DNA of 64,000 bases, taken from the NCBI RefSeq assembly GCF_056746865.1, contig NZ_CM163382.1; one strand, given 5' to 3'. The position numbers and the translations under genes were made by a program. The notes under the pieces are model-generated. The model made no database searches. It saw only the letters and a list, made by a program, of their open reading frames with translations, and was not told the origin of the DNA. Positions 32,199 to 44,860 of this stretch are shown here, piece by piece. Numbering within the stretch: position 1 is the first letter of the stretch; each line of letters begins with the position of its first letter.

Positions 32199-32522
32199 TT
32201 TAACTCCCACACTTCAACGAAAGTTGTTTCCTCATTGCTTGCCTCCTGAGTTTTGCAAACAGCCTGATGGTAGCTTGCCCTTTCAAATCATTAAGTGGTA
32301 TCCACAGACAAACCTGAAGGGAAAGGCATATTTTCAGGCGTTCTGCTCGTCTTTCTCAAAGAGTTTACTTTTCTGAATTTCCAGGATACTCAAACCACCC
32401 TGGCTATTGTGCGCTCATACACTCAAATTAAAGATAGGGTCTAAATAAATGAGCGTTTTTTGATAGTCTATTTTATTAGGTAATATATATTTGTAACAAA
32501 TCAATCAACATGGAATAAAATC

Positions 32523-33770
32523 ATGCTACCATCTATTTCAATCAACAATACCAGCGCAGCTTACACAGAATCCATCAATGAAAATAACAATGATGAAGTT
32601 AATAGATTAGTACAAGAGCTCAAAAACCTTTTTAATGGTAAGCAAGGAATAAGCACCTGTGTTAAACATCTACTTGCGCTTATAAAAAACGCCATACGAG
32701 GAAACGACAATCCTGATAGATTTAATATTAATAATTCCTCAGTTACTTATATTGATATTGGCTCCAATGATACAGACCACATTACTATTGGTATCGATAA
32801 CCAAGAAACAATAAAATTACTTGCGAGCTATAAAGACAAAGAACTCGTCCGTGCTATCATTAATGACAACATAGTTGAGAAGACTCATGATGATATAAAT
32901 AATGCTGACTTTACTGATGGTAGTATCGTTGTTAGTGGTAATAAGGGTGCTATTGACTCCAATGATACAGCCGATATTACTAGTGGTATCTATAATCAAG
33001 AACCAATAAAATCACCTACGAACGATGAAAACAAAAAAGTCGGCCAAACCATCATCCATGAAAATGTAGTAGAGAATACTCATGATATCAATAACAAGGA
33101 AATGATCTTCAGCGCATTAAAAGAAATATATGATGGAGATCCTGGTTTTATCTTCGATAAGATATCACAAAAACTCAGACATACGATAACGGAATTTGAT
33201 GAGAATGGGAAAAGCGAACCAACGGACTTATTTACCTGGTACGGTAAAGATAAAAAAGGCGATTCTCTCGCTATTGTAATTAAAAATAAAAACGGAAATG
33301 ATTACTTATCTCTCGGTTACTATGATCAGGACGACTACCACATTCAAAGAGGAATTCGTATTAATGGTGATAGTCTCACCCAATATTGTAGTGAAAAAGC
33401 CAGGAATGCTTCAGCGTGGTTTGAAAGCAGTAAAGCTATCATGGCAGAATCATTTGCAACAGGTTCCGATCATCAGGTTGTAAACGAGCTCAACGGGGAA
33501 AGACTGAGAGAGCCAAACGAAGTTTTTAAACGTTTAGGTCGAGCAATAAGATATAATTTTCAAGTAGACGATGCAAAATTTAGACGCGATAATGTAAAAG
33601 AAATAATTTCTACTTTAGTCGATAACGAAGTTGACCGTTCTCAAAATAAATATGACCACTTTAAGGAAATCGAAGATAAAGTTGAAAAAAGGCTTCAAAA
33701 TCGCCAGGCTAAATATCAAAATGAAATTAATCAACTATCTGCATTGGGTGTTAATTTTGATGATAATTAA
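32523..33770 (+). CDS. yfdF: Uncharacterized AT-rich protein YfdF-like, with internal ~65-aa tandem duplication
   Basis: 415-aa ORF MLPSISINNTSAAYTESINENNNDE; Asn/Asp/Lys/Ile-rich and low GC; sits between fadL and mlaA as yfdF does in E. coli. Confidence 0.7.
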   Translation: MLPSISINNTSAAYTESINENNNDEVNRLVQELKNLFNGKQGISTCVKHLLALIKNAIRGNDNPDRFNINNSSVTYIDIGSNDTDHITIGIDNQETIKLLASYKDKELVRAIINDNIVEKTHDDINNADFTDGSIVVSGNKGAIDSNDTADITSGIYNQEPIKSPTNDENKKVGQTIIHENVVENTHDINNKEMIFSALKEIYDGDPGFIFDKISQKLRHTITEFDENGKSEPTDLFTWYGKDKKGDSLAIVIKNKNGNDYLSLGYYDQDDYHIQRGIRINGDSLTQYCSEKARNASAWFESSKAIMAESFATGSDHQVVNELNGERLREPNEVFKRLGRAIRYNFQVDDAKFRRDNVKEIISTLVDNEVDRSQNKYDHFKEIEDKVEKRLQNRQAKYQNEINQLSALGVNFDDN

Positions 33771-33909
33771 AATTGTCCAGTTTTTTTGATTTTTCAACGC
33801 CTGAATATCGGAAATAGTCAGTGACGAACATCAGTATTTTTACATAATTATGTTCAGGTCATTGTCGGTTTATCTTCTTTTACTTGGGGTAATTGAGGGA
33901 TAACAACAA

Positions 33910-33942
33910 AAAAGGTGAGTTTTGTGACTCACCTTTTTTATT
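33910..33942. terminator. Bidirectional rho-independent terminator between yfdF and mlaA
   Basis: AAGGTGAGT-TTTGTG-ACTCACCTT hairpin flanked by A-run upstream and TTTTTTATTT downstream. Confidence 0.6.
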
Positions 33943-33948
33943 TGTTTC

Positions 33949-34704
33949 TTATTCAGAATCGATATCTTTTAAATCATCCTGAATCGCTTGCGCGTTCGGA
34001 TTTTCCTGCGGTTTGAGTTCGCCGCCATTAGCGATGAAATCATGACGCTGGAAGTACGCTTCGCGCACCATAATATAAGGATCGGACGACTGACGCAGCA
34101 GACCATCGGAATCCAGCAGCTGTGCGCGGGTTTCGATCCCTTCAAGCGTCCATTTACCCACAGACATCGGCCAGGTCAGCCAGGAAAGAACCGGGTAAAG
34201 ACCATCCGCCATATCACCACCGTCATCACGCAGCGTGAAGCTACCGTAGAACGGTAACTGAACGTATGGCCCATAACCCACACCATAATGACCAAGCGTA
34301 CTACCGAAGCGGTGAGGTTCAGTCCGTTGCAGTTTCGGGTTCGCCATCCCTGCAACATCAATAAAGCCGCCCATCCCCAAAATGGTGTTCAGGAAAAAGC
34401 GGGTAAAGTGGACCATCCCCTGATAAGGGTCGCCCTGCAAGAAGTAGTTAACCATCACCGCAGGTTCTTCAAGGTTGCCAGTAAAGTTGCTCAAACCGTT
34501 ACGCGCCGGTTGCGGAACATAATCACGCCAGGCGACAGCGACCGGTCGAACAATATACGGGTCTAATACATTGAAGTTGAAGTTGTACATGGTGCGGTTG
34601 AACCCTTCTAACGGGTCAGAACGCCCTTGCTGATCTGTACCGGAACTCGCACACCCCACCAGAAGCGTAGTTCCCAGAGCAAGCGCCGACAGGCGAAGCT
34701 TCAT
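33949..34704 (-). CDS. mlaA: Outer-membrane lipoprotein MlaA (VacJ)
   Basis: 251-aa ORF with lipoprotein signal MKLRLSALALGTTLLVGCAS and MlaA-family core. Confidence 0.9.
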   Translation of the reverse strand: MKLRLSALALGTTLLVGCASSGTDQQGRSDPLEGFNRTMYNFNFNVLDPYIVRPVAVAWRDYVPQPARNGLSNFTGNLEEPAVMVNYFLQGDPYQGMVHFTRFFLNTILGMGGFIDVAGMANPKLQRTEPHRFGSTLGHYGVGYGPYVQLPFYGSFTLRDDGGDMADGLYPVLSWLTWPMSVGKWTLEGIETRAQLLDSDGLLRQSSDPYIMVREAYFQRHDFIANGGELKPQENPNAQAIQDDLKDIDSE

Positions 34705-34997
34705 AAATGTCTCCCTGTTTTTTTATGGCTTATGCAGTTTGCCATCCATGACGGAACGATACCGTATCCGCCTGTTTAGGTGTGGGCGATTGTAACAGCA
34801 CGTCAACTGATGTCCAGACGCCCTGATTTGCTGATTTGATCATAGCCTGGTAATCGCCGCCCTGTAGGCTACTTGATTCTATAGAAACAGAAAAAGGCAA
34901 ACGCGGCCTTTTCTACATTTTCAGAGTAACTCCCGCCAGTTGCGAGCAAAAAAGCCGCTACGCTTTAGCTATACGTGCTAATTCAAGAGAAGAGACC

Positions 34998-35930
34998 ATG
35001 GACAACGACAAAATTGATCAACACAGCGACGAAATTGAAGTTGAGAGCGAAGAAAAAGAGCGCGGCAAAAAAATAGAAATAGATGAAGATCGACTCCCCT
35101 CCCGGGCGATGGCAATTCATGAGCATATCCGCCAGGATGGTGAAAAAGAGCTGGAACGCGACGCAATGGCACTACTGTGGTCAGCCATTGCGGCGGGTCT
35201 GTCGATGGGCGCTTCATTACTGGCAAAAGGGATATTTCATGTCGAACTGGAAGGTGTGCCGGGCAGCTTCTTGCTGGAGAATCTCGGTTATACCTTTGGT
35301 TTTATTATCGTCATTATGGCCCGCCAGCAATTATTTACCGAAAACACCGTGACTGCGGTACTACCCGTCATGCAAAAACCGACAATGAGCAACGTTGGCT
35401 TACTTATGCGGTTATGGGGCGTCGTGCTGCTGGGTAATATTCTCGGGACAGGTATTGCGGCGTGGGCATTTGAATATATGCCAATCTTCAATGAAGAAAC
35501 TCGCGATGCATTTGTCAAAATCGGCATGGATGTGATGAAGAACACCCCCAGCGAGATGTTTGCCAACGCGATCATTTCCGGCTGGCTGATCGCCACTATG
35601 GTATGGATGTTTCCTGCAGCGGGTGCGGCAAAGATTGTGGTGATTATATTGATGACCTGGCTTATTGCCCTGGGTGACACCACTCACATCGTTGTCGGTT
35701 CTGTTGAAATCCTCTATCTGGTGTTTAACGGTACGCTGCACTGGAGCGATTTCATCTGGCCCTTCGCACTACCTACTTTAGCGGGGAACATCTGCGGCGG
35801 CACCTTTATCTTCGCGTTAATGAGTCATGCACAGATTCGTAACGACATGAGCAACAAGCGCAAAGCAGAAGCACGCCAAAAAGCAGAACGTGCGGAAAAC
35901 ATTAAGAAAAATGATAAAAACCCGGCATAA
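34998..35930 (+). CDS. yfdC: Formate/nitrite transporter family inner membrane protein YfdC
   Basis: 310-aa ORF, acidic N-terminus then polytopic membrane domain; immediately upstream of argW as in E. coli. Confidence 0.85.
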   Translation: MDNDKIDQHSDEIEVESEEKERGKKIEIDEDRLPSRAMAIHEHIRQDGEKELERDAMALLWSAIAAGLSMGASLLAKGIFHVELEGVPGSFLLENLGYTFGFIIVIMARQQLFTENTVTAVLPVMQKPTMSNVGLLMRLWGVVLLGNILGTGIAAWAFEYMPIFNEETRDAFVKIGMDVMKNTPSEMFANAIISGWLIATMVWMFPAAGAAKIVVIILMTWLIALGDTTHIVVGSVEILYLVFNGTLHWSDFIWPFALPTLAGNICGGTFIFALMSHAQIRNDMSNKRKAEARQKAERAENIKKNDKNPA

Positions 35931-36005
35931 ATGGCGAGGGTTTAAGCAATCGAGCGGCAGCGTACTTACCCCGCAGTCCATTAGCGGGTATACTCATGCC
36001 GCATT

Positions 36006-36080
36006 GTCCTCTTAGTTAAATGGATATAACGAGCCCCTCCTAAGGGCTAATTGCAGGTTCGATTCCTGCAGGGGACACCA
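36006..36080 (+). tRNA. argW: tRNA-Arg (anticodon CCU)
   Basis: GTCCTCTTAGTTAAATGGATATAACGAGCCCCTCCTAAGGGCTAATTGCAGGTTCGATTCCTGCAGGGGACACCA: 75 nt, cloverleaf-compatible, CCU anticodon in the loop, 3-prime CCA. Confidence 0.9.
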
Positions 36081-37830: not shown

Positions 37831-38754
37831 TTACTTCTCACTTTCCAGTTCTTGTCGACATGGCAGCGCTGTCATTGCCCCTTTCGCTGTTACTGCAAGC
37901 GCTCCGCAACGTTGAGCGAGATCGATAATTCGTCGCATTTCTCTCTCATCTGTAGATAATCCCGAAGAGGACAGACCTGTGAGTAACCCGGCAACGAACG
38001 CATCTCCCGCCCCAGTGCTATCGACACAATTCACAGACATTCCAGCAAAATGGTGGACTTGTCCTCGATAACAGACCACCACCCCTTCTGCACCTTTAGT
38101 CACCAACAGCATGGCGATCTCATAATCTTTTGCCAGGGCGCATATATCCCGATCGTTCTGTGTTTTTCCACTGATAAGTCGCCATTCTTCTTCCGAGAGC
38201 TTGACGACATCCGCCAGTTGTAGCGCCTGCCGCAAACACAAGCGGAGCAAATGCTCGTCTTGCCATAGATCTTCACGAATATTGGGATCGAAGCTGACAA
38301 AACCTCCGGCATGCCGGATCGCCGTCATCGCAGTAAATGCGCTGGTACGCGAAGGCTCGGCAGACAACGCAATTGAACAGAGATGTAACCATTCGCCATG
38401 TCGCCAGCAGGGCAAGTCTGTCGTCTCTAAAAAAAGATCGGCACTGGGGCGGACCATAAACGTAAATGAACGTTCTCCTTGATCGTTCAGATCGACAAGC
38501 ACCGTGGATGTCCGGTGCCATTCATCTTGCTTCAGATACGTGATATCGACACCCTCAGTTAGCAGCGTTCTTTGCATTAACGCACCAAAAGGATCATCAC
38601 CGACCCGACCTATAAACCCACTTGTTCCGCCTAATCTGGCGATTCCCACCGCAACGTTAGCTGGCGCGCCGCCAGGACAAGGCAGTAGCCGCCCGTCTGA
38701 TTCTGGCAAGAGATCTACGACCGCATCCCCTAAAACCCATACTTTGGCTGACAT
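37831..38754 (-). CDS. cscK: Fructokinase CscK (ribokinase/pfkB family)
   Basis: 307-aa ORF MSAKVWVLGDAVVDLLPE with pfkB signature (DSTGAGDAFVAGLL). Confidence 0.9.
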   Translation of the reverse strand: MSAKVWVLGDAVVDLLPESDGRLLPCPGGAPANVAVGIARLGGTSGFIGRVGDDPFGALMQRTLLTEGVDITYLKQDEWHRTSTVLVDLNDQGERSFTFMVRPSADLFLETTDLPCWRHGEWLHLCSIALSAEPSRTSAFTAMTAIRHAGGFVSFDPNIREDLWQDEHLLRLCLRQALQLADVVKLSEEEWRLISGKTQNDRDICALAKDYEIAMLLVTKGAEGVVVCYRGQVHHFAGMSVNCVDSTGAGDAFVAGLLTGLSSSGLSTDEREMRRIIDLAQRCGALAVTAKGAMTALPCRQELESEK

Positions 38755-38858
38755 TTTTTTCCCTTAAATTCATCTGACTTACGCATAGTGATAAACCTCT
38801 TTTTCGCAAAATCGTCATGGATTTACTAAAACATGCATATTCGATCACAAAACATCAT

Positions 38859-38936
38859 AGTTAACGTTAACATTTGTGATATTCATCGCATTTATGAAAG
38901 TAAGTGACTTTATTTTTATAAAAGTTAACGTTAACA
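38859..38936. promoter_or_regulatory. Divergent cscK/cscA promoter region with two identical palindromic 14-mers (candidate CscR operators)
   Basis: AGTTAACGTTAACA occurs at 38859-38872 and 38923-38936; each is itself palindromic (GTTAAC x2); LacI-family repressors bind such dyads. Confidence 0.5.
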
Positions 38937-38960
38937 ATTCACCAAATTTGCTTAACCAGG

Positions 38961-40403
38961 ATGATTAAAATGACGCAATCTCGATTGCATGCGGCGCAAA
39001 ACGCACTAGCAAAACTTCACGAGCGCCGAGGTAACACTTTCTATCCCCATTTTCACCTCGCGCCTCCTGCCGGGTGGATGAACGATCCAAACGGCCTGAT
39101 CTGGTTTAACGATCGTTATCACGCGTTTTATCAACATCACCCGATGAGCGAACACTGGGGGCCAATGCACTGGGGACATGCCACCAGCGACGATATGATC
39201 CACTGGCAGCATGAGCCTATTGCGCTAGCGCCAGGAGACGAGAATGACAAAGACGGATGTTTTTCAGGTAGTGCTGTCGATGACAATGGTGTCCTCTCAC
39301 TTATCTACACCGGACACGTCTGGCTCGATAGTGAAGGTAATGACGATGCAATTCGCGAAGTACAATGTCTGGCTACCAGTCGGGATGGTATTCATTTCGA
39401 GAAACAGGGTGTGATCCTCACTCCACCAGAAGGAATCATGCACTTCCGCGATCCTAAAGTGTGGCGTGAAGCCGACACATGGTGGATGGTAGTCGGGGCG
39501 AAAGACCCAGGCAACACGGGGCAGATCCTGCTTTATCGCGGCAGTTCATTGCGTGAATGGACTTTCGATCGCGTACTGGCCCACGCTGATGCGGGTGAAA
39601 GCTATATGTGGGAATGTCCGGACTTTTTCAGCCTTGGCGATCAGCATTATCTGATGTTTTCCCCGCAGGGAATGAATGCCGAGGGATACAGTTATCGAAA
39701 TCGCTTTCAAAGTGGCGTAATACCCGGAATGTGGTCGCCAGGACGACTTTTTGCACAATCCGGGCATTTTACTGAACTTGATAACGGGCATGACTTTTAT
39801 GCACCACAAAGCTTTGTAGCGAAGGATGGTCGGCGTATTGTTATCGGCTGGATGGATATGTGGGAATCGCCAATGCCCTCAAAACGTGAAGGCTGGGCAG
39901 GCTGCATGACGCTGGCGCGCGAGCTATCAGAGAGCAATGGCAAACTCCTACAACGCCCGGTACACGAAGCTGAGTCGTTACGCCAGCAGCATCAATCTAT
40001 CTCTCCCCGCACAATCAGCAATAAATATGTTTTGCAGGAAAACGCGCAAGCAGTTGAGATTCAGTTGCAGTGGGAGCTGAAGAACAGTGATGCCGAACAT
40101 TACGGATTACAACTCGGCACAGGAATGCGGCTGTATATTGATAACCAATCTGAGCGACTTGTTTTGTGGCGATATTACCCACACGAGAATTTAGACGGCT
40201 ACCGTAGTATTCCCCTCCCGCAGGGTGACACGCTCGCCCTAAGGATATTTATCGATACATCATCCGTGGAAGTATTTATTAACGACGGGGAAACGGTGAT
40301 GAGTAGCCGAATCTATCCGCAGCCAGAAGAACGGGAACTGTCGCTCTATGCCTCCCACGGAGTGGCTGTGCTGCAACATGGAGCACTCTGGCAACTGGGT
40401 TAA
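38961..40403 (+). CDS. cscA: Sucrose-6-phosphate hydrolase / invertase CscA (GH32)
   Basis: 480-aa ORF with GH32 motifs (WMNDPNG, RDP, EC); alternative start at ATG 38970 (MTQSRLHAA) gives 477 aa. Confidence 0.9.
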   Translation: MIKMTQSRLHAAQNALAKLHERRGNTFYPHFHLAPPAGWMNDPNGLIWFNDRYHAFYQHHPMSEHWGPMHWGHATSDDMIHWQHEPIALAPGDENDKDGCFSGSAVDDNGVLSLIYTGHVWLDSEGNDDAIREVQCLATSRDGIHFEKQGVILTPPEGIMHFRDPKVWREADTWWMVVGAKDPGNTGQILLYRGSSLREWTFDRVLAHADAGESYMWECPDFFSLGDQHYLMFSPQGMNAEGYSYRNRFQSGVIPGMWSPGRLFAQSGHFTELDNGHDFYAPQSFVAKDGRRIVIGWMDMWESPMPSKREGWAGCMTLARELSESNGKLLQRPVHEAESLRQQHQSISPRTISNKYVLQENAQAVEIQLQWELKNSDAEHYGLQLGTGMRLYIDNQSERLVLWRYYPHENLDGYRSIPLPQGDTLALRIFIDTSSVEVFINDGETVMSSRIYPQPEERELSLYASHGVAVLQHGALWQLG

Positions 40404-40410
40404 CATAATA

Positions 40411-41406
40411 TCAGGTGGAACAACGGATCAACAGCGGGCAAGGGATCCGCGTCACTCTTCCCCCTTCACGACCTTCAATAATATGCAATGCAGCTTCCCG
40501 CCCGATAATGTCATGTGGAAGCTGAATTGTGGTCAGCGGCGGTAAAAACAGATGCCCGACGCCAACCAGATTATCAAAGCCCATTACGGCGACATCCTGC
40601 GGGATACGTACCCCCTTCGCCAGGAGAACCTGATAAGCGACAAAGGCTGCGCGATCGTTACCACATATCAGAACATCAAAATCTGGTTTGCCAGATTTGA
40701 AGTGGTCATTGAGTAAACTTGCGAGATCGGTGTAGTGATCATCACCTGTTGCCATGTGAAATTGTTTCACCTCAGCCAGATCTCGTCCAGCATCACGCCA
40801 GGCCTGCTCAAATCCCTGCCGACGATACCCTGTTGCCAACGCACTTTCCGGTAGCCAGAAGCATAACGGTTGACGATAGCCCGCCGCGAGCAAATGCTGT
40901 GTTGATTCATATTGTGCAGTGTAATCATCAGGGATATAACTGGGTAACGCTGGGTCATCCGCAACACAGTTCGCCAATACAATATTTTCACCATACAGAG
41001 ACTCAGGCAGCGTGATATGTCGCAGCCCCATTGTAGTATAGATAATGCCATCCGGACGGTGGGCAAGCAGCTGACGTGCCGCGCGGGCAGCGTCATCTTC
41101 AGAAAAAATATTGATTAAAAAACTATTCCAGCCGAACTCGCTGGCGGTTTGCTCAATGGCAAGCAGAATATCAACAGAGAAAGGAGTGGTAGCCGTGTCC
41201 TGCGCCAGCACGGCGAGAGTCGACGGCTTACGTCCTTGAGCGCGCATCTTACGGGCGGAAAGATCAGGAACATAATTCAGGGTCTGGATTGCCTGCAATA
41301 CGCGGTTACGCGTTGCAGGACGCACAGATTCTGCATTATGCATCACCCGGGAGACTGTCATCATCGACACTCCCGCCAGGCGTGCGACATCCTTTAATGA
41401 AGCCAT
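40411..41406 (-). CDS. cscR: LacI-family sucrose operon repressor CscR
   Basis: ORF 40411..41604 contains MASLKDVARLAGVSMMTVSRVMHN (LacI HTH); start trimmed to ATG 41406 (331 aa). Confidence 0.88.
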   Translation of the reverse strand: MASLKDVARLAGVSMMTVSRVMHNAESVRPATRNRVLQAIQTLNYVPDLSARKMRAQGRKPSTLAVLAQDTATTPFSVDILLAIEQTASEFGWNSFLINIFSEDDAARAARQLLAHRPDGIIYTTMGLRHITLPESLYGENIVLANCVADDPALPSYIPDDYTAQYESTQHLLAAGYRQPLCFWLPESALATGYRRQGFEQAWRDAGRDLAEVKQFHMATGDDHYTDLASLLNDHFKSGKPDFDVLICGNDRAAFVAYQVLLAKGVRIPQDVAVMGFDNLVGVGHLFLPPLTTIQLPHDIIGREAALHIIEGREGGRVTRIPCPLLIRCST

Positions 41407-41636
41407 ACCCAAGCCGTTTGCCGTAAAACGGGCACTGTAGCAGAAACAGACGTCACTGGCGAGATCCAACGATATTCTCGACGCCCTATCACCCGACACG
41501 GCAATACAATAAAAAATAACAATAATTCCCGGACAATTGTACCCAATTCCGCCTCTGTTCTCGCCAACGAGTAACCATGTAGGCAAGTAGGTAAAACATG
41601 CCAACTGGCATCGCCAATCTGGAGAAGAAAATATAA

Positions 41637-41867
41637 ATATGGATCATTGTGCTGGCGCTGTATCCCGACATCAGCCCGGAAATTTTTACGATTGATATCG
41701 GTTCAAGTGCAATTGGCTGCACGATCGTTACGGACTCGCTTTTCTGGCTGGTGAAGCAATATTGCGGCGCTACGCTCAATGAAACATTTAAATACTATAC
41801 GACAGCGACATTTATCGCTTCAGTCGTCGCTCTGGCGGGCACATTCCTGCTGTCATTTATCATCTAA
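41637..41867 (+). pseudogene. dsdX: 3-prime remnant of D-serine permease gene dsdX (GntP family), truncated by the csc insertion
   Basis: Frame open from 41637 with no upstream coding continuation; hydrophobic C-terminal sequence ...[49 protein letters not shown]... matches my recollection of the DsdX C-terminus; directly upstream of dsdA. Confidence 0.65.
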
Positions 41868-41884
41868 GCGCAAAGAGACGTACT

Positions 41885-43216
41885 ATGGAAAACGCTAAAA
41901 TGAATTCGCTCATCGCCCAGTATCCGTTGGTAAAGGATCTGGTTGCTCTTCAAGAAACCACCTGGTTTAATCCTGGCACGACCTCATTGGCTGAAGGTTT
42001 ACCTTATGTTGGCCTGACCGAACAGGATGTTCAGGACGCCCATGCGCGCTTATCCCGTTTTGCACCCTATCTGGCAAAAGCATTTCCTGAAACTGCTGCT
42101 ACTGGGGGGATTATTGAATCAGAACTGGTTGCCATTCCGGCTATGCAAAAACGGCTGGAAAAGGAATATCAACAACCGATCAGCGGGCAACTGCTACTGA
42201 AAAAAGATAGCCATTTGCCCATTTCCGGCTCCATAAAAGCACGCGGCGGGATTTATGAAGTCCTGGCACATGCAGAAAAACTGGCTCTGGAAGCGGGGTT
42301 GCTGACGCTTGAAGATGACTACAGCAAACTGCTTTCTCCGGAGTTTAAACAGTTCTTTAGCCAATACAGCATTGCTGTGGGCTCAACCGGAAATCTGGGG
42401 TTATCAATCGGCATTATGAGCGCCCGCATTGGCTTTAAGGTGACAGTACATATGTCTGCTGATGCCCGGGCATGGAAAAAAGCGAAACTGCGCAGCCATG
42501 GCGTTACGGTCGTGGAATATGAGCAAGATTATGGTGTTGCAGTCGAGGAAGGACGTAAAGCAGCGCAGTCTGACCCGAACTGTTTCTTTATTGATGACGA
42601 GAATTCCCGCACGTTGTTCCTTGGGTATTCCGTCGCAGGCCAGCGTCTTAAAGCGCAATTTGCCGAGCAAGGTCGTATCGTCGATGCTGATAACCCTCTG
42701 TTTGTCTATCTGCCGTGTGGTGTTGGCGGTGGTCCTGGTGGCGTCGCATTCGGACTTAAACTGGCGTTTGGCGATCATGTTCACTGCTTTTTTGCCGAAC
42801 CAACGCACTCCCCTTGTATGTTGTTAGGCGTCCATACTGGATTACACGATCAGATTTCTGTTCAGGATATTGGTATCGACAACCTTACCGCAGCGGATGG
42901 CCTTGCAGTTGGTCGCGCATCAGGCTTTGTCGGGCGGGCAATGGAGCGTCTACTGGATGGCTTCTATACCCTTAGCGATCAAACCATGTATGACATGCTT
43001 GGCTGGCTGGCGCAGGAAGAAGGCATTCGTCTTGAACCTTCGGCACTGGCGGGTATGGCCGGGCCTCAGCGCGTGTGCGCATCAGTAAGTTACCAACAGA
43101 TGCACGGTTTCAGCGCAGAACAACTGCGTAATGCCACTCATCTGGTGTGGGCGACGGGAGGTGGAATGGTGCCGGAAGAAGAGATGGAGCAATATCTGGC
43201 AAAAGGCCGTTCATAA
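41885..43216 (+). CDS. dsdA: D-serine dehydratase (ammonia-lyase)
   Basis: 443-aa [34 protein letters not shown] with PLP-lysine region (SGSIKARGG). Confidence 0.95.
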
Positions 43217-43321: not shown

Positions 43322-44860
43322 TCACCCAACGCCTTTCGCTGTAAACGGCGGTTTCGCAAACCAAACCAATACCGTAAGTAAGATAAAAGCAATAGCCGCC
43401 ATACGGAAAATCTCATTTGCAGAAATTGAAAGTGACTGCTGAGTTATTTCATTATTAATTTCATTAAGAACCCCTGAAAGCGAACCATAGTATTTATCCA
43501 TAATTTGTGACGATGAATTAAACACGGGGTTAAATTGATCGATTGTTGCTGTCAACTGACTATGGTGTAATGATTCTCGGCGTCCCCACAGCGTCATTGT
43601 CAACGACGTACCAACTGATCCTGACAAGGTACGAAAAAAATTACTCATACTCGAGGCATTGGCAAATTTATTATCTGGCAAACCTGAAAACGAAATCGTT
43701 GTTAAGGGTAAAAAGAAACAGGCGACGGCGAATCCCTGAAAAAACTGTGGCAAAATGATGCCTGTAAAATCAATCGTTGGCATAAATGTCACAGAACGCC
43801 AGTAATAGCAAACCGCATACATTAAAAAACTAAATGTCACCAACAACCGCATATCAATTTTGTTGCCATAACGTCCTATCAAAGGTGATATTAATAGCGG
43901 CATGATGCCGATGGGCGCATAGGCAAGTCCGGCCCATATCGCATTATACCCCATCGTTTCCTGGAGTAACTGCGGCATAAGGACTATCGCCCCAGAGTAA
44001 AATAAATACGCGCATGTGATACTCACAATACCAATGGTGAAATTACGGGACTTAAACAAACTGAGATCAAGAATCGGGTTCTCTGAGGTCGACTCCCAAA
44101 TGACTAAAGAAATCAGAGAAATAACTGACACTACTGTTAGTATTATTATTGTACTCGAGTTGAACCAATCCAGGTCGCGCCCTTTATCAAGCATTATCTG
44201 CAAGCCACCAACACCGAGCACTAACAGGGTCAGTCCTGGTAGATTCATTTTGACCGGTGAAGTCTCAGTTTCTCTTCCTTTAAGTAAGGTTAAGCATAAT
44301 GTCAGAACGATAATCCCCATAGGGACATTGATTAAAAATATCCAACCCCAGCTAAAGTTATCGCAAATATAGCCGCCCAATATCGGCCCACATATCGGAG
44401 CGATAATTACGGTCATTGACCATAATGCCAAAGCAAATGTTCTTTTTTCTGGCGGATAATTCCTTAATAATAAACTCTGTGACAGTGGAATTAACGGCCC
44501 CGCCATTAACCCCTGAACGACTCTAAAAAATATCAGCACATCAAGATTGGTCGATAGGCTACACATTAAGGAAGACAGCGAAAAAAAAGTGACTGAAAGT
44601 AAAAATAATCTTAATTCGCCTATTCTTTGTGCCAGCCTGCCGGTAACAGGGATCGCAATGGCATTTGCTACGCCAAACGAAGTGATAACCCAGGTGCCTT
44701 CGTCTGTTGATGCTCCCAGAAAGCCAGATATTGTCGGTATTGCGACGTTAGAAATAGTGGAATCCAACATTTGCATAAACGTCGCTAATGACAATGCAAT
44801 AGTGACGCACCATAACGTCCCACCGGTTAATGGTGCCGGAGTTGATTTAGTGATTGCCAT
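43322..44860 (-). CDS. emrY: Multidrug efflux MFS transporter EmrY (EmrB paralog)
   Basis: 512-aa 14-TM ORF; overlaps emrK stop. Confidence 0.9.
   Translation of the reverse strand: MAITKSTPAPLTGGTLWCVTIALSLATFMQMLDSTISNVAIPTISGFLGASTDEGTWVITSFGVANAIAIPVTGRLAQRIGELRLFLLSVTFFSLSSLMCSLSTNLDVLIFFRVVQGLMAGPLIPLSQSLLLRNYPPEKRTFALALWSMTVIIAPICGPILGGYICDNFSWGWIFLINVPMGIIVLTLCLTLLKGRETETSPVKMNLPGLTLLVLGVGGLQIMLDKGRDLDWFNSSTIIILTVVSVISLISLVIWESTSENPILDLSLFKSRNFTIGIVSITCAYLFYSGAIVLMPQLLQETMGYNAIWAGLAYAPIGIMPLLISPLIGRYGNKIDMRLLVTFSFLMYAVCYYWRSVTFMPTIDFTGIILPQFFQGFAVACFFLPLTTISFSGLPDNKFANASSMSNFFRTLSGSVGTSLTMTLWGRRESLHHSQLTATIDQFNPVFNSSSQIMDKYYGSLSGVLNEINNEITQQSLSISANEIFRMAAIAFILLTVLVWFAKPPFTAKGVG

Follow-up and report, generated by a model that had tools for sequence, protein, structure and literature searches.

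The exchange of csc for dsd genes is a recognised determinant of niche preference in Escherichia coli: tolerance and use of D-serine favour life in urine and brain, whereas the use of sucrose is common in gut and diarrhoeagenic lineages, and in EHEC D-serine also acts as a repressor of the LEE type III secretion system. In K-12, dsdX and dsdA are read as one transcript. The first descriptions of the swap are reportedly those of Alaeddinoglu and Charles from 1979, Jahreis from 2002 and Moritz and Welch from 2006. The experimentally best-dissected case is that of the EHEC strain EDL933, in which cscBKAR has replaced dsdC and truncated dsdX (O'Boyle 2020, PMC7486766). D-serine inhibits EHEC and does not support its growth, the wild-type region upstream of dsdA gives a low reporter signal, and a weak internal promoter, dsdAp, lies about 115 bp upstream of dsdA in a part of the dsdX 3' region that is also kept in the locus described below (PMC7486766). 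Spontaneous deletions, or a constructed deletion of cscR, place dsdA under the cscA or the z3622 promoter (the latter in one evolved EHEC clone) and bring D-serine catabolism back, which proves the orphan DsdA enzyme to be functional (PMC7486766). The same truncation has been tied to the argW hotspot in a study that also found carriage of LEE and of dsdCXA to be near-exclusive in 1591 genomes (Connolly et al., 2015, PMC4366372), and the same insertion, with loss of D-serine use, has been described in the genome of E. coli W (PMC3032704). A 2026 paper applied a triplex PCR to the cscR-dsdA junction and recorded inverse sucrose and D-serine phenotypes in commensal isolates (PMC13054288). The distribution of csc by phylogroup has been reviewed in a paper that also covers the swap and its opposite sucrose and D-serine phenotypes (Stephens et al., 2024, PMC11251922); dsdC was 'often retained' together with csc in that collection, indicating that other arrangements exist.

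We analysed 64,000 nt of contig NZ_CM163382.1 (assembly GCF_056746865.1), hereafter the window, with the feature under study at 41637-43216. The window shares its gene order, namely argW, a short gene fragment, cscB, cscK, cscA, cscR, a dsdX remnant, dsdA and emrY (Table 1), with the csc-type locus of O157:H7 EDL933/TUV93-0, E. coli W and EC3132, and its breakpoint inside dsdX is also theirs. A single colinear alignment with an O157:H7 genome, of 98.3% identity, spans the cscA 3' end, cscR, the junction, dsdA and the emrY 3' end, and the differences from the EDL933/W type are allelic only, comprising five substitutions in the remnant, an extra serine in DsdA and a few amino-acid changes. Compared with the intact dsdCXA locus of K-12, UPEC and NMEC, the window is colinear at 97.2% identity in the last 218 nt of dsdX, dsdA, emrYK and evgAS; it lacks dsdC, the divergent dsdC-dsdX control region, dsdX nt 1-1120 and the K-12 prophage between argW and dsdC, in place of which it has the csc genes. 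The evolved EHEC clones LCV2 and LCV10B started from the same architecture and had dsdA reactivated by upstream deletions, illustrating that an orphan dsdA can be recruited (PMC7486766); unlike these clones, the window has the undeleted wild-type arrangement with cscR and cscA complete. We are thus dealing, in all probability, with a csc-type allele of the argW-dsd variable region of E. coli, in which dsdA is intact but has lost its DsdC-dependent promoter and would be expressed at a basal level.

Table 1. Features of the argW-emrY region of the window, with the evidence for each (positions refer to the 64,000-nt stretch).
Feature	Position	Strand	Evidence
mlaA	33949-34704	-	ORF list and family scans
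yfdC	34998-35930	+	ORF list and family scans
tRNA-Arg (CCU), argW	36006-36080	+	ARAGORN; PGAP tRNA-Arg in a strain 100% identical over 24 kb
argW as left border of the variable island; recombination/integration hotspot	36006-36080	+	PMC4366372, PMC11251922
DUF4942 gene fragment, 50 codons	36290-36442	+	PGAP of the identical strain 2017C-4173W12; ORF list
cscB, sucrose:H+ symporter (oligosaccharide MFS transporter), intact, 415 aa	36522-37769	-	TIGR00882, 593 bits (cutoff 220)
cscK, fructokinase, intact, 307 aa	37831-38754	-	NF006957, 507 bits (cutoff 450)
cscA, sucrose hydrolase (invertase)	38970-40403 (PGAP start; longest ORF from 38961)	+	TIGR01322, 481 bits (cutoff 356)
cscR, LacI-family repressor of the csc genes, 331 aa from the PGAP start	40411-41406	-	LacI-family matches; PGAP CDS
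csc-side spacer upstream of cscR, 243 bp, up to the breakpoint	41407-41649	.	without K-12 dsd homology
dsdX pseudogene remnant, 218 nt (72 codons and stop)	41650-41867	+	blastn against K-12, profile search, PGAP
dsdA, D-serine ammonia-lyase, intact, 443 aa	41885-43216	+	ORF, TIGR02035, K-12 comparison, 3SS7 alignment
emrY, conserved right flank, colinear with K-12	43322-44860	-	family scan, blastn, PGAP
emrY, emrK, evgA, evgS (right flank)	from 43322	as in K-12	

All four csc genes lie between argW and dsdA, as seen with NCBIfam models, ARAGORN and the PGAP annotation of an identical strain, so that the first-pass annotation, made from the letters and their open reading frames, was right to place csc genes where dsdC and the bulk of dsdX would be. 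The cscB, cscK and cscA genes are base-for-base those annotated as intact by PGAP in strain 118UI, and cscR, which PGAP names as such in some genomes, is convergent with cscA, their stops being 7 bp apart. The DUF4942 fragment next to argW looks like a leftover of an earlier argW-associated island and, by its position, may match EDL933 z3622. Between ~36011 and 48803 the sequence of strain 118UI is the same as that of the window; in the part upstream of argW (32400-36010 compared) it encodes a tyrosine recombinase and carries further foreign genes where the window has mlaA and yfdC, indicating variability on the other side of argW as well.

The breakpoint was located by searching the window by blastn with a 13.75-kb stretch of K-12 MG1655 containing prophage genes, dsdC, dsdX, dsdA, emrYK and evgAS. 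This gave a single colinear alignment of 97.2% identity that runs from position 41650 through dsdA, emrY, emrK and evgAS, with 41650 corresponding to nt 1121 of the 1338-nt K-12 dsdX; in an alignment anchored at this point the similarity to K-12 ends abruptly to the left. Consistent with this, the 72-aa ORF at 41649-41867 covers positions 374-445 of the 445 positions of the NCBIfam DsdX equivalog model NF007395 (E=1.8e-39), but its score of 136 bits falls far short of the cutoff of 618 that identifies the full-length transporter (~445 aa), and hence it is a fragment of DsdX rather than a transporter. PGAP treats it in the same way in all nine of the annotated csc-type genomes inspected, labelling it 'D-serine transporter DsdX (or GntT/GntP/DsdX family permease), incomplete; missing N-terminus'. 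The reading of dsdX as a 3' remnant whose frame at 41637-41867 matches the DsdX C-terminus is therefore sound, but its proposed extent (a start at 41637, ~77 codons and ~230 bp) needs correction, because 41637, 13 bp to the left of the breakpoint, is where the frame opens after a preceding stop codon, and the first four codons belong to the csc side and not to dsdX. The junction itself, ...ATATGGATCATTG followed directly by TGCTG..., is common to the window, O157:H7 and six other csc-type genomes, and in all the dsdCXA-positive genomes sampled the match to our query likewise begins at the base equivalent to 41650, there lying within an intact dsdX. Directly in front of the dsdA ATG, 133 bp agree with K-12 at every position, which argues that the match at the junction has not arisen by chance. 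The spacer between cscR and the remnant is 12-13 bp shorter in some csc-type lineages (229-230 bp at three loci, against 242 bp as extracted), pointing to a small indel polymorphism in the region upstream of cscR.

No DsdC homolog was recovered in the 64-kb window with K-12 DsdC as a tblastn query (E<=1e-3), and the K-12 DNA to the left of dsdX nt 1121, including the dsdC-dsdX control region, has no blastn match anywhere in the 64 kb. The 243 bp that separate the remnant from the start of cscR (41406) are too short for a gene, and the first-pass claim that there is no dsdC between cscR and dsdA thus holds. Even if a dsdC gene were present at another locus, it would not bring the dsdA of the window back under control, since the deletion has also taken away the DsdC-dependent promoter region of dsdX; recovery of the phenotype would require a second dsdCXA in full. 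Such a second copy is unlikely in the lineage of the window, judging from its relatives: a dsdA-containing query has one place only in each of the 12 genomes ranked highest, which are without exception 100% identical over 24 kb, and again a single place in 118UI.

The frequency of the arrangement was assessed in 5426 complete RefSeq E. coli genomes with a 3.1-kb query consisting of the cscA 3' end, cscR, the junction, dsdA and the emrY 3' end. One colinear piece covering at least 80% of the cscR-dsdA query is present in 2660 of these genomes, O157:H7 among them, and a 201-nt probe centred on the junction shows it to be spanned in 2669. With K-12 dsdC found in 2734 genomes, the csc-type and the dsdC-bearing states make up roughly complementary halves of the species, and the arrangement in the window is an ordinary one, i.e., the common csc-type allele that is seen in about half of the complete E. 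coli genomes. The counts imply that dsdC also occurs in at least about 45 of the genomes with the junction, and some junction-bearing genomes, for example BH100N, have a second place for the query.

The product of dsdA scores 812 bits on TIGR02035 (cutoff 368) and 779 on NF002823 (cutoff 246), and is 98.9% identical to K-12 DsdA. In an alignment with the E. coli enzyme of known structure (3SS7), its residues 1-442 show five substitutions and conserve the PLP-lysine motif SGSIKARGG, which leaves the first-pass description of the gene as intact on firm ground. In the window the stop codon is changed (TAA>TCA, 43211-43216) and is followed by a tandem TAA, giving 443 aa with one extra C-terminal Ser; each of the remaining 13 genes in the sample set out next encodes 442 aa. 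We compared the dsdA genes of the window and seven diverse csc-type genomes with those of K-12 and five dsdCXA-type genomes, and found an intact frame in all 14 (8/8 of the csc-type genes, the window included). Pairwise Nei-Gojobori pN/pS, computed on this small sample (8 csc-type, 6 dsdCXA-type) by a method that ignores phylogeny and recombination, is 0.060 within the csc-type, 0.038 within the dsdCXA-type and 0.052 between the two groups, at a synonymous divergence of ~8%. Two csc-type strains encode a DsdA identical to the K-12 protein WP_000426427.1, alleles of dsdA are common to csc and dsd backgrounds, and the contiguous cscR-dsdA segment is missing in only 9 of the 2669 junction-bearing genomes. 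Relaxed constraint on the orphan gene was considered and dropped: with all sampled genes intact, low pN/pS (0.060 against 0.038, for eight csc-type and six dsdCXA-type genes), K-12-identical proteins and so few broken segments, there is no sign of it. This constraint may reflect a basal function, or else recombination that moves dsdA alleles between csc and dsd backgrounds.

Taken with the published work, this organization suggests the following course of events. An ancestral recombination would have put cscB-cscK-cscA-cscR beside argW, and the same event would have removed dsdC together with the dsdC-dsdX control region and dsdX nt 1-1120, with dsdA surviving intact and probably encoding an active enzyme, though deprived of the DsdC-activated promoter. 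The sole promoter left would then be the weak one inside the dsdX 3' end, and for this reason the expression of dsdA is predicted to be basal and not induced by D-serine. Cells of the csc-type would use sucrose through CscB, CscA and CscK under the control of CscR, and would neither grow on D-serine nor escape inhibition by it. The near-silence of dsdA, the D-serine phenotype and the reactivation by promoter fusion are experimental results published for other strains that have this junction, and by analogy the strain of the window would be expected to behave like other csc-type strains. The D-serine-sensitive, sucrose-positive phenotype that the first-pass annotation predicted has indeed been measured in such strains (EHEC EDL933/TUV93-0, PMC7486766 and PMC4366372; E. 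coli W, PMC3032704; and commensals, PMC13054288). Its overall reading is correct and already published, and the feature is real, ordinary and already known, being both PGAP-annotated and experimentally dissected. One of its suggestions, namely a promoter within the junction running antisense to that of cscR, does not fit the geometry: cscR is transcribed away from dsdA, so that a promoter at this place would be divergent from that of cscR, and the gene that points toward dsdA is cscA. A scan for the sigma-70 consensus recovered no site matching at 9 or more of 12 positions on either strand in 41300-42000 or in 38700-41900, and hence a new junction promoter cannot be proposed from the sequence; a looser scan at 8 of 12 gives weak matches only, one of them extra in the allele of the window.

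The strong purifying selection on an allegedly silent dsdA is not fully explained by this csc-type model, and two alternatives bear on it. It is unlikely that dsdA is a decaying pseudogene-in-waiting without function in csc-type cells, intact only since the swap is recent or since recombination re-introduces it. Eight of eight csc-type genes being intact at ~8% synonymous difference, with a pN/pS of 0.06 near the 0.04 of the dsdCXA-type, and only 9 of 2669 junction-bearing genomes being without a contiguous cscR-dsdA segment, speak against such decay, as does the activity of DsdA when transcribed (PMC7486766), although one paper applies the term 'pseudogenes' to dsdX and dsdA in E. coli W, a laboratory-evolved clone lost both with no reported cost, and the alleles of dsdA common to csc and dsd backgrounds are consistent with shuffling by recombination. 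The other alternative is that the circuit has been rewired, with sucrose relieving repression by CscR and transcripts from the cscA promoter crossing the antisense cscR and the dsdX remnant into dsdA. The two genes are on the same strand, with only cscR (on the opposite strand) and 478 bp between them. Between the end of cscA (stop at 40403) and 41832 the + strand showed no intrinsic-terminator-like site, and the single weak one, at 41833-41852, lies in sequence 100% identical to K-12. Read-through in the intact arrangement is conceivable because the cscA promoter drives dsdA once cscR is deleted, CscR supplied in trans shutting dsdA off again (O'Boyle 2020, PMC7486766). The wild-type fragment from the cscA promoter to dsdA, however, gives only a low reporter signal (PMC7486766), and transcripts antisense to cscR, untranslated over ~1.5 kb, would lend themselves well to Rho-dependent termination and to collision with cscR transcription. 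Moreover, earlier studies cited in PMC11251922 have sucrose and D-serine use as mutually exclusive, and no sucrose-induced expression of dsdA was found in the literature searched. We accordingly regard a sucrose-controlled rewiring of dsdA as doubtful, and equally doubtful the role that it would confer on the orphan gene, that of a sucrose-conditional D-serine detoxification gene served by read-through over the antisense cscR.

A further alternative concerns the remnant itself, which bears five substitutions private to the lineage, at 41655, 41685, 41688, 41695 and 41706 (C>G, A>T, G>A, C>A and G>A, respectively), all nonsynonymous in the dead dsdX frame, with no synonymous changes. They might have been selected for raising the expression of dsdA, e.g., through a new promoter, and for thereby conferring partial D-serine tolerance on a lineage that includes at least one urine isolate, 118UI. 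Such an origin would account for the packing into 52 bp, 179-230 bp upstream of dsdA, of five of the 13 differences that are private to the window over 3.1 kb, and for the occurrence of this allele at >=99% identity in 148 of the 2669 junction-bearing genomes, 118UI included, where the next class in a spread sample is at 96.5% identity with no intermediate class. The cluster also adds one promoter-like match (CCGACA-16-TACGAT). This match, however, agrees at 8 of 12 positions only, under the scan threshold, in a region without a promoter-like site at 9 or more of 12, and the cluster sits in the only stretch of the 3.1 kb without evident function. Neutral decay or a single multi-base mutation is the simpler reading, and adaptation is very improbable. 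Gene conversion from a GntP-family paralogue was also considered as the source of the cluster and is unsupported: the 201-nt probe has no second place in 118UI, and all the changes are nonsynonymous. If sucrose-dependent read-through did operate, the substitutions at 41655-41706 might modulate the expression of dsdA.

The csc-type allele found here adds no new biology and places the strain in the csc-type half of the species. The modest question that it leaves is that of an uninduced dsdA being kept intact, with a pN/pS near 0.06, across thousands of genomes. Were the gene after all expressed conditionally on sucrose, this could explain the purifying selection on dsdA in about half of E. coli.
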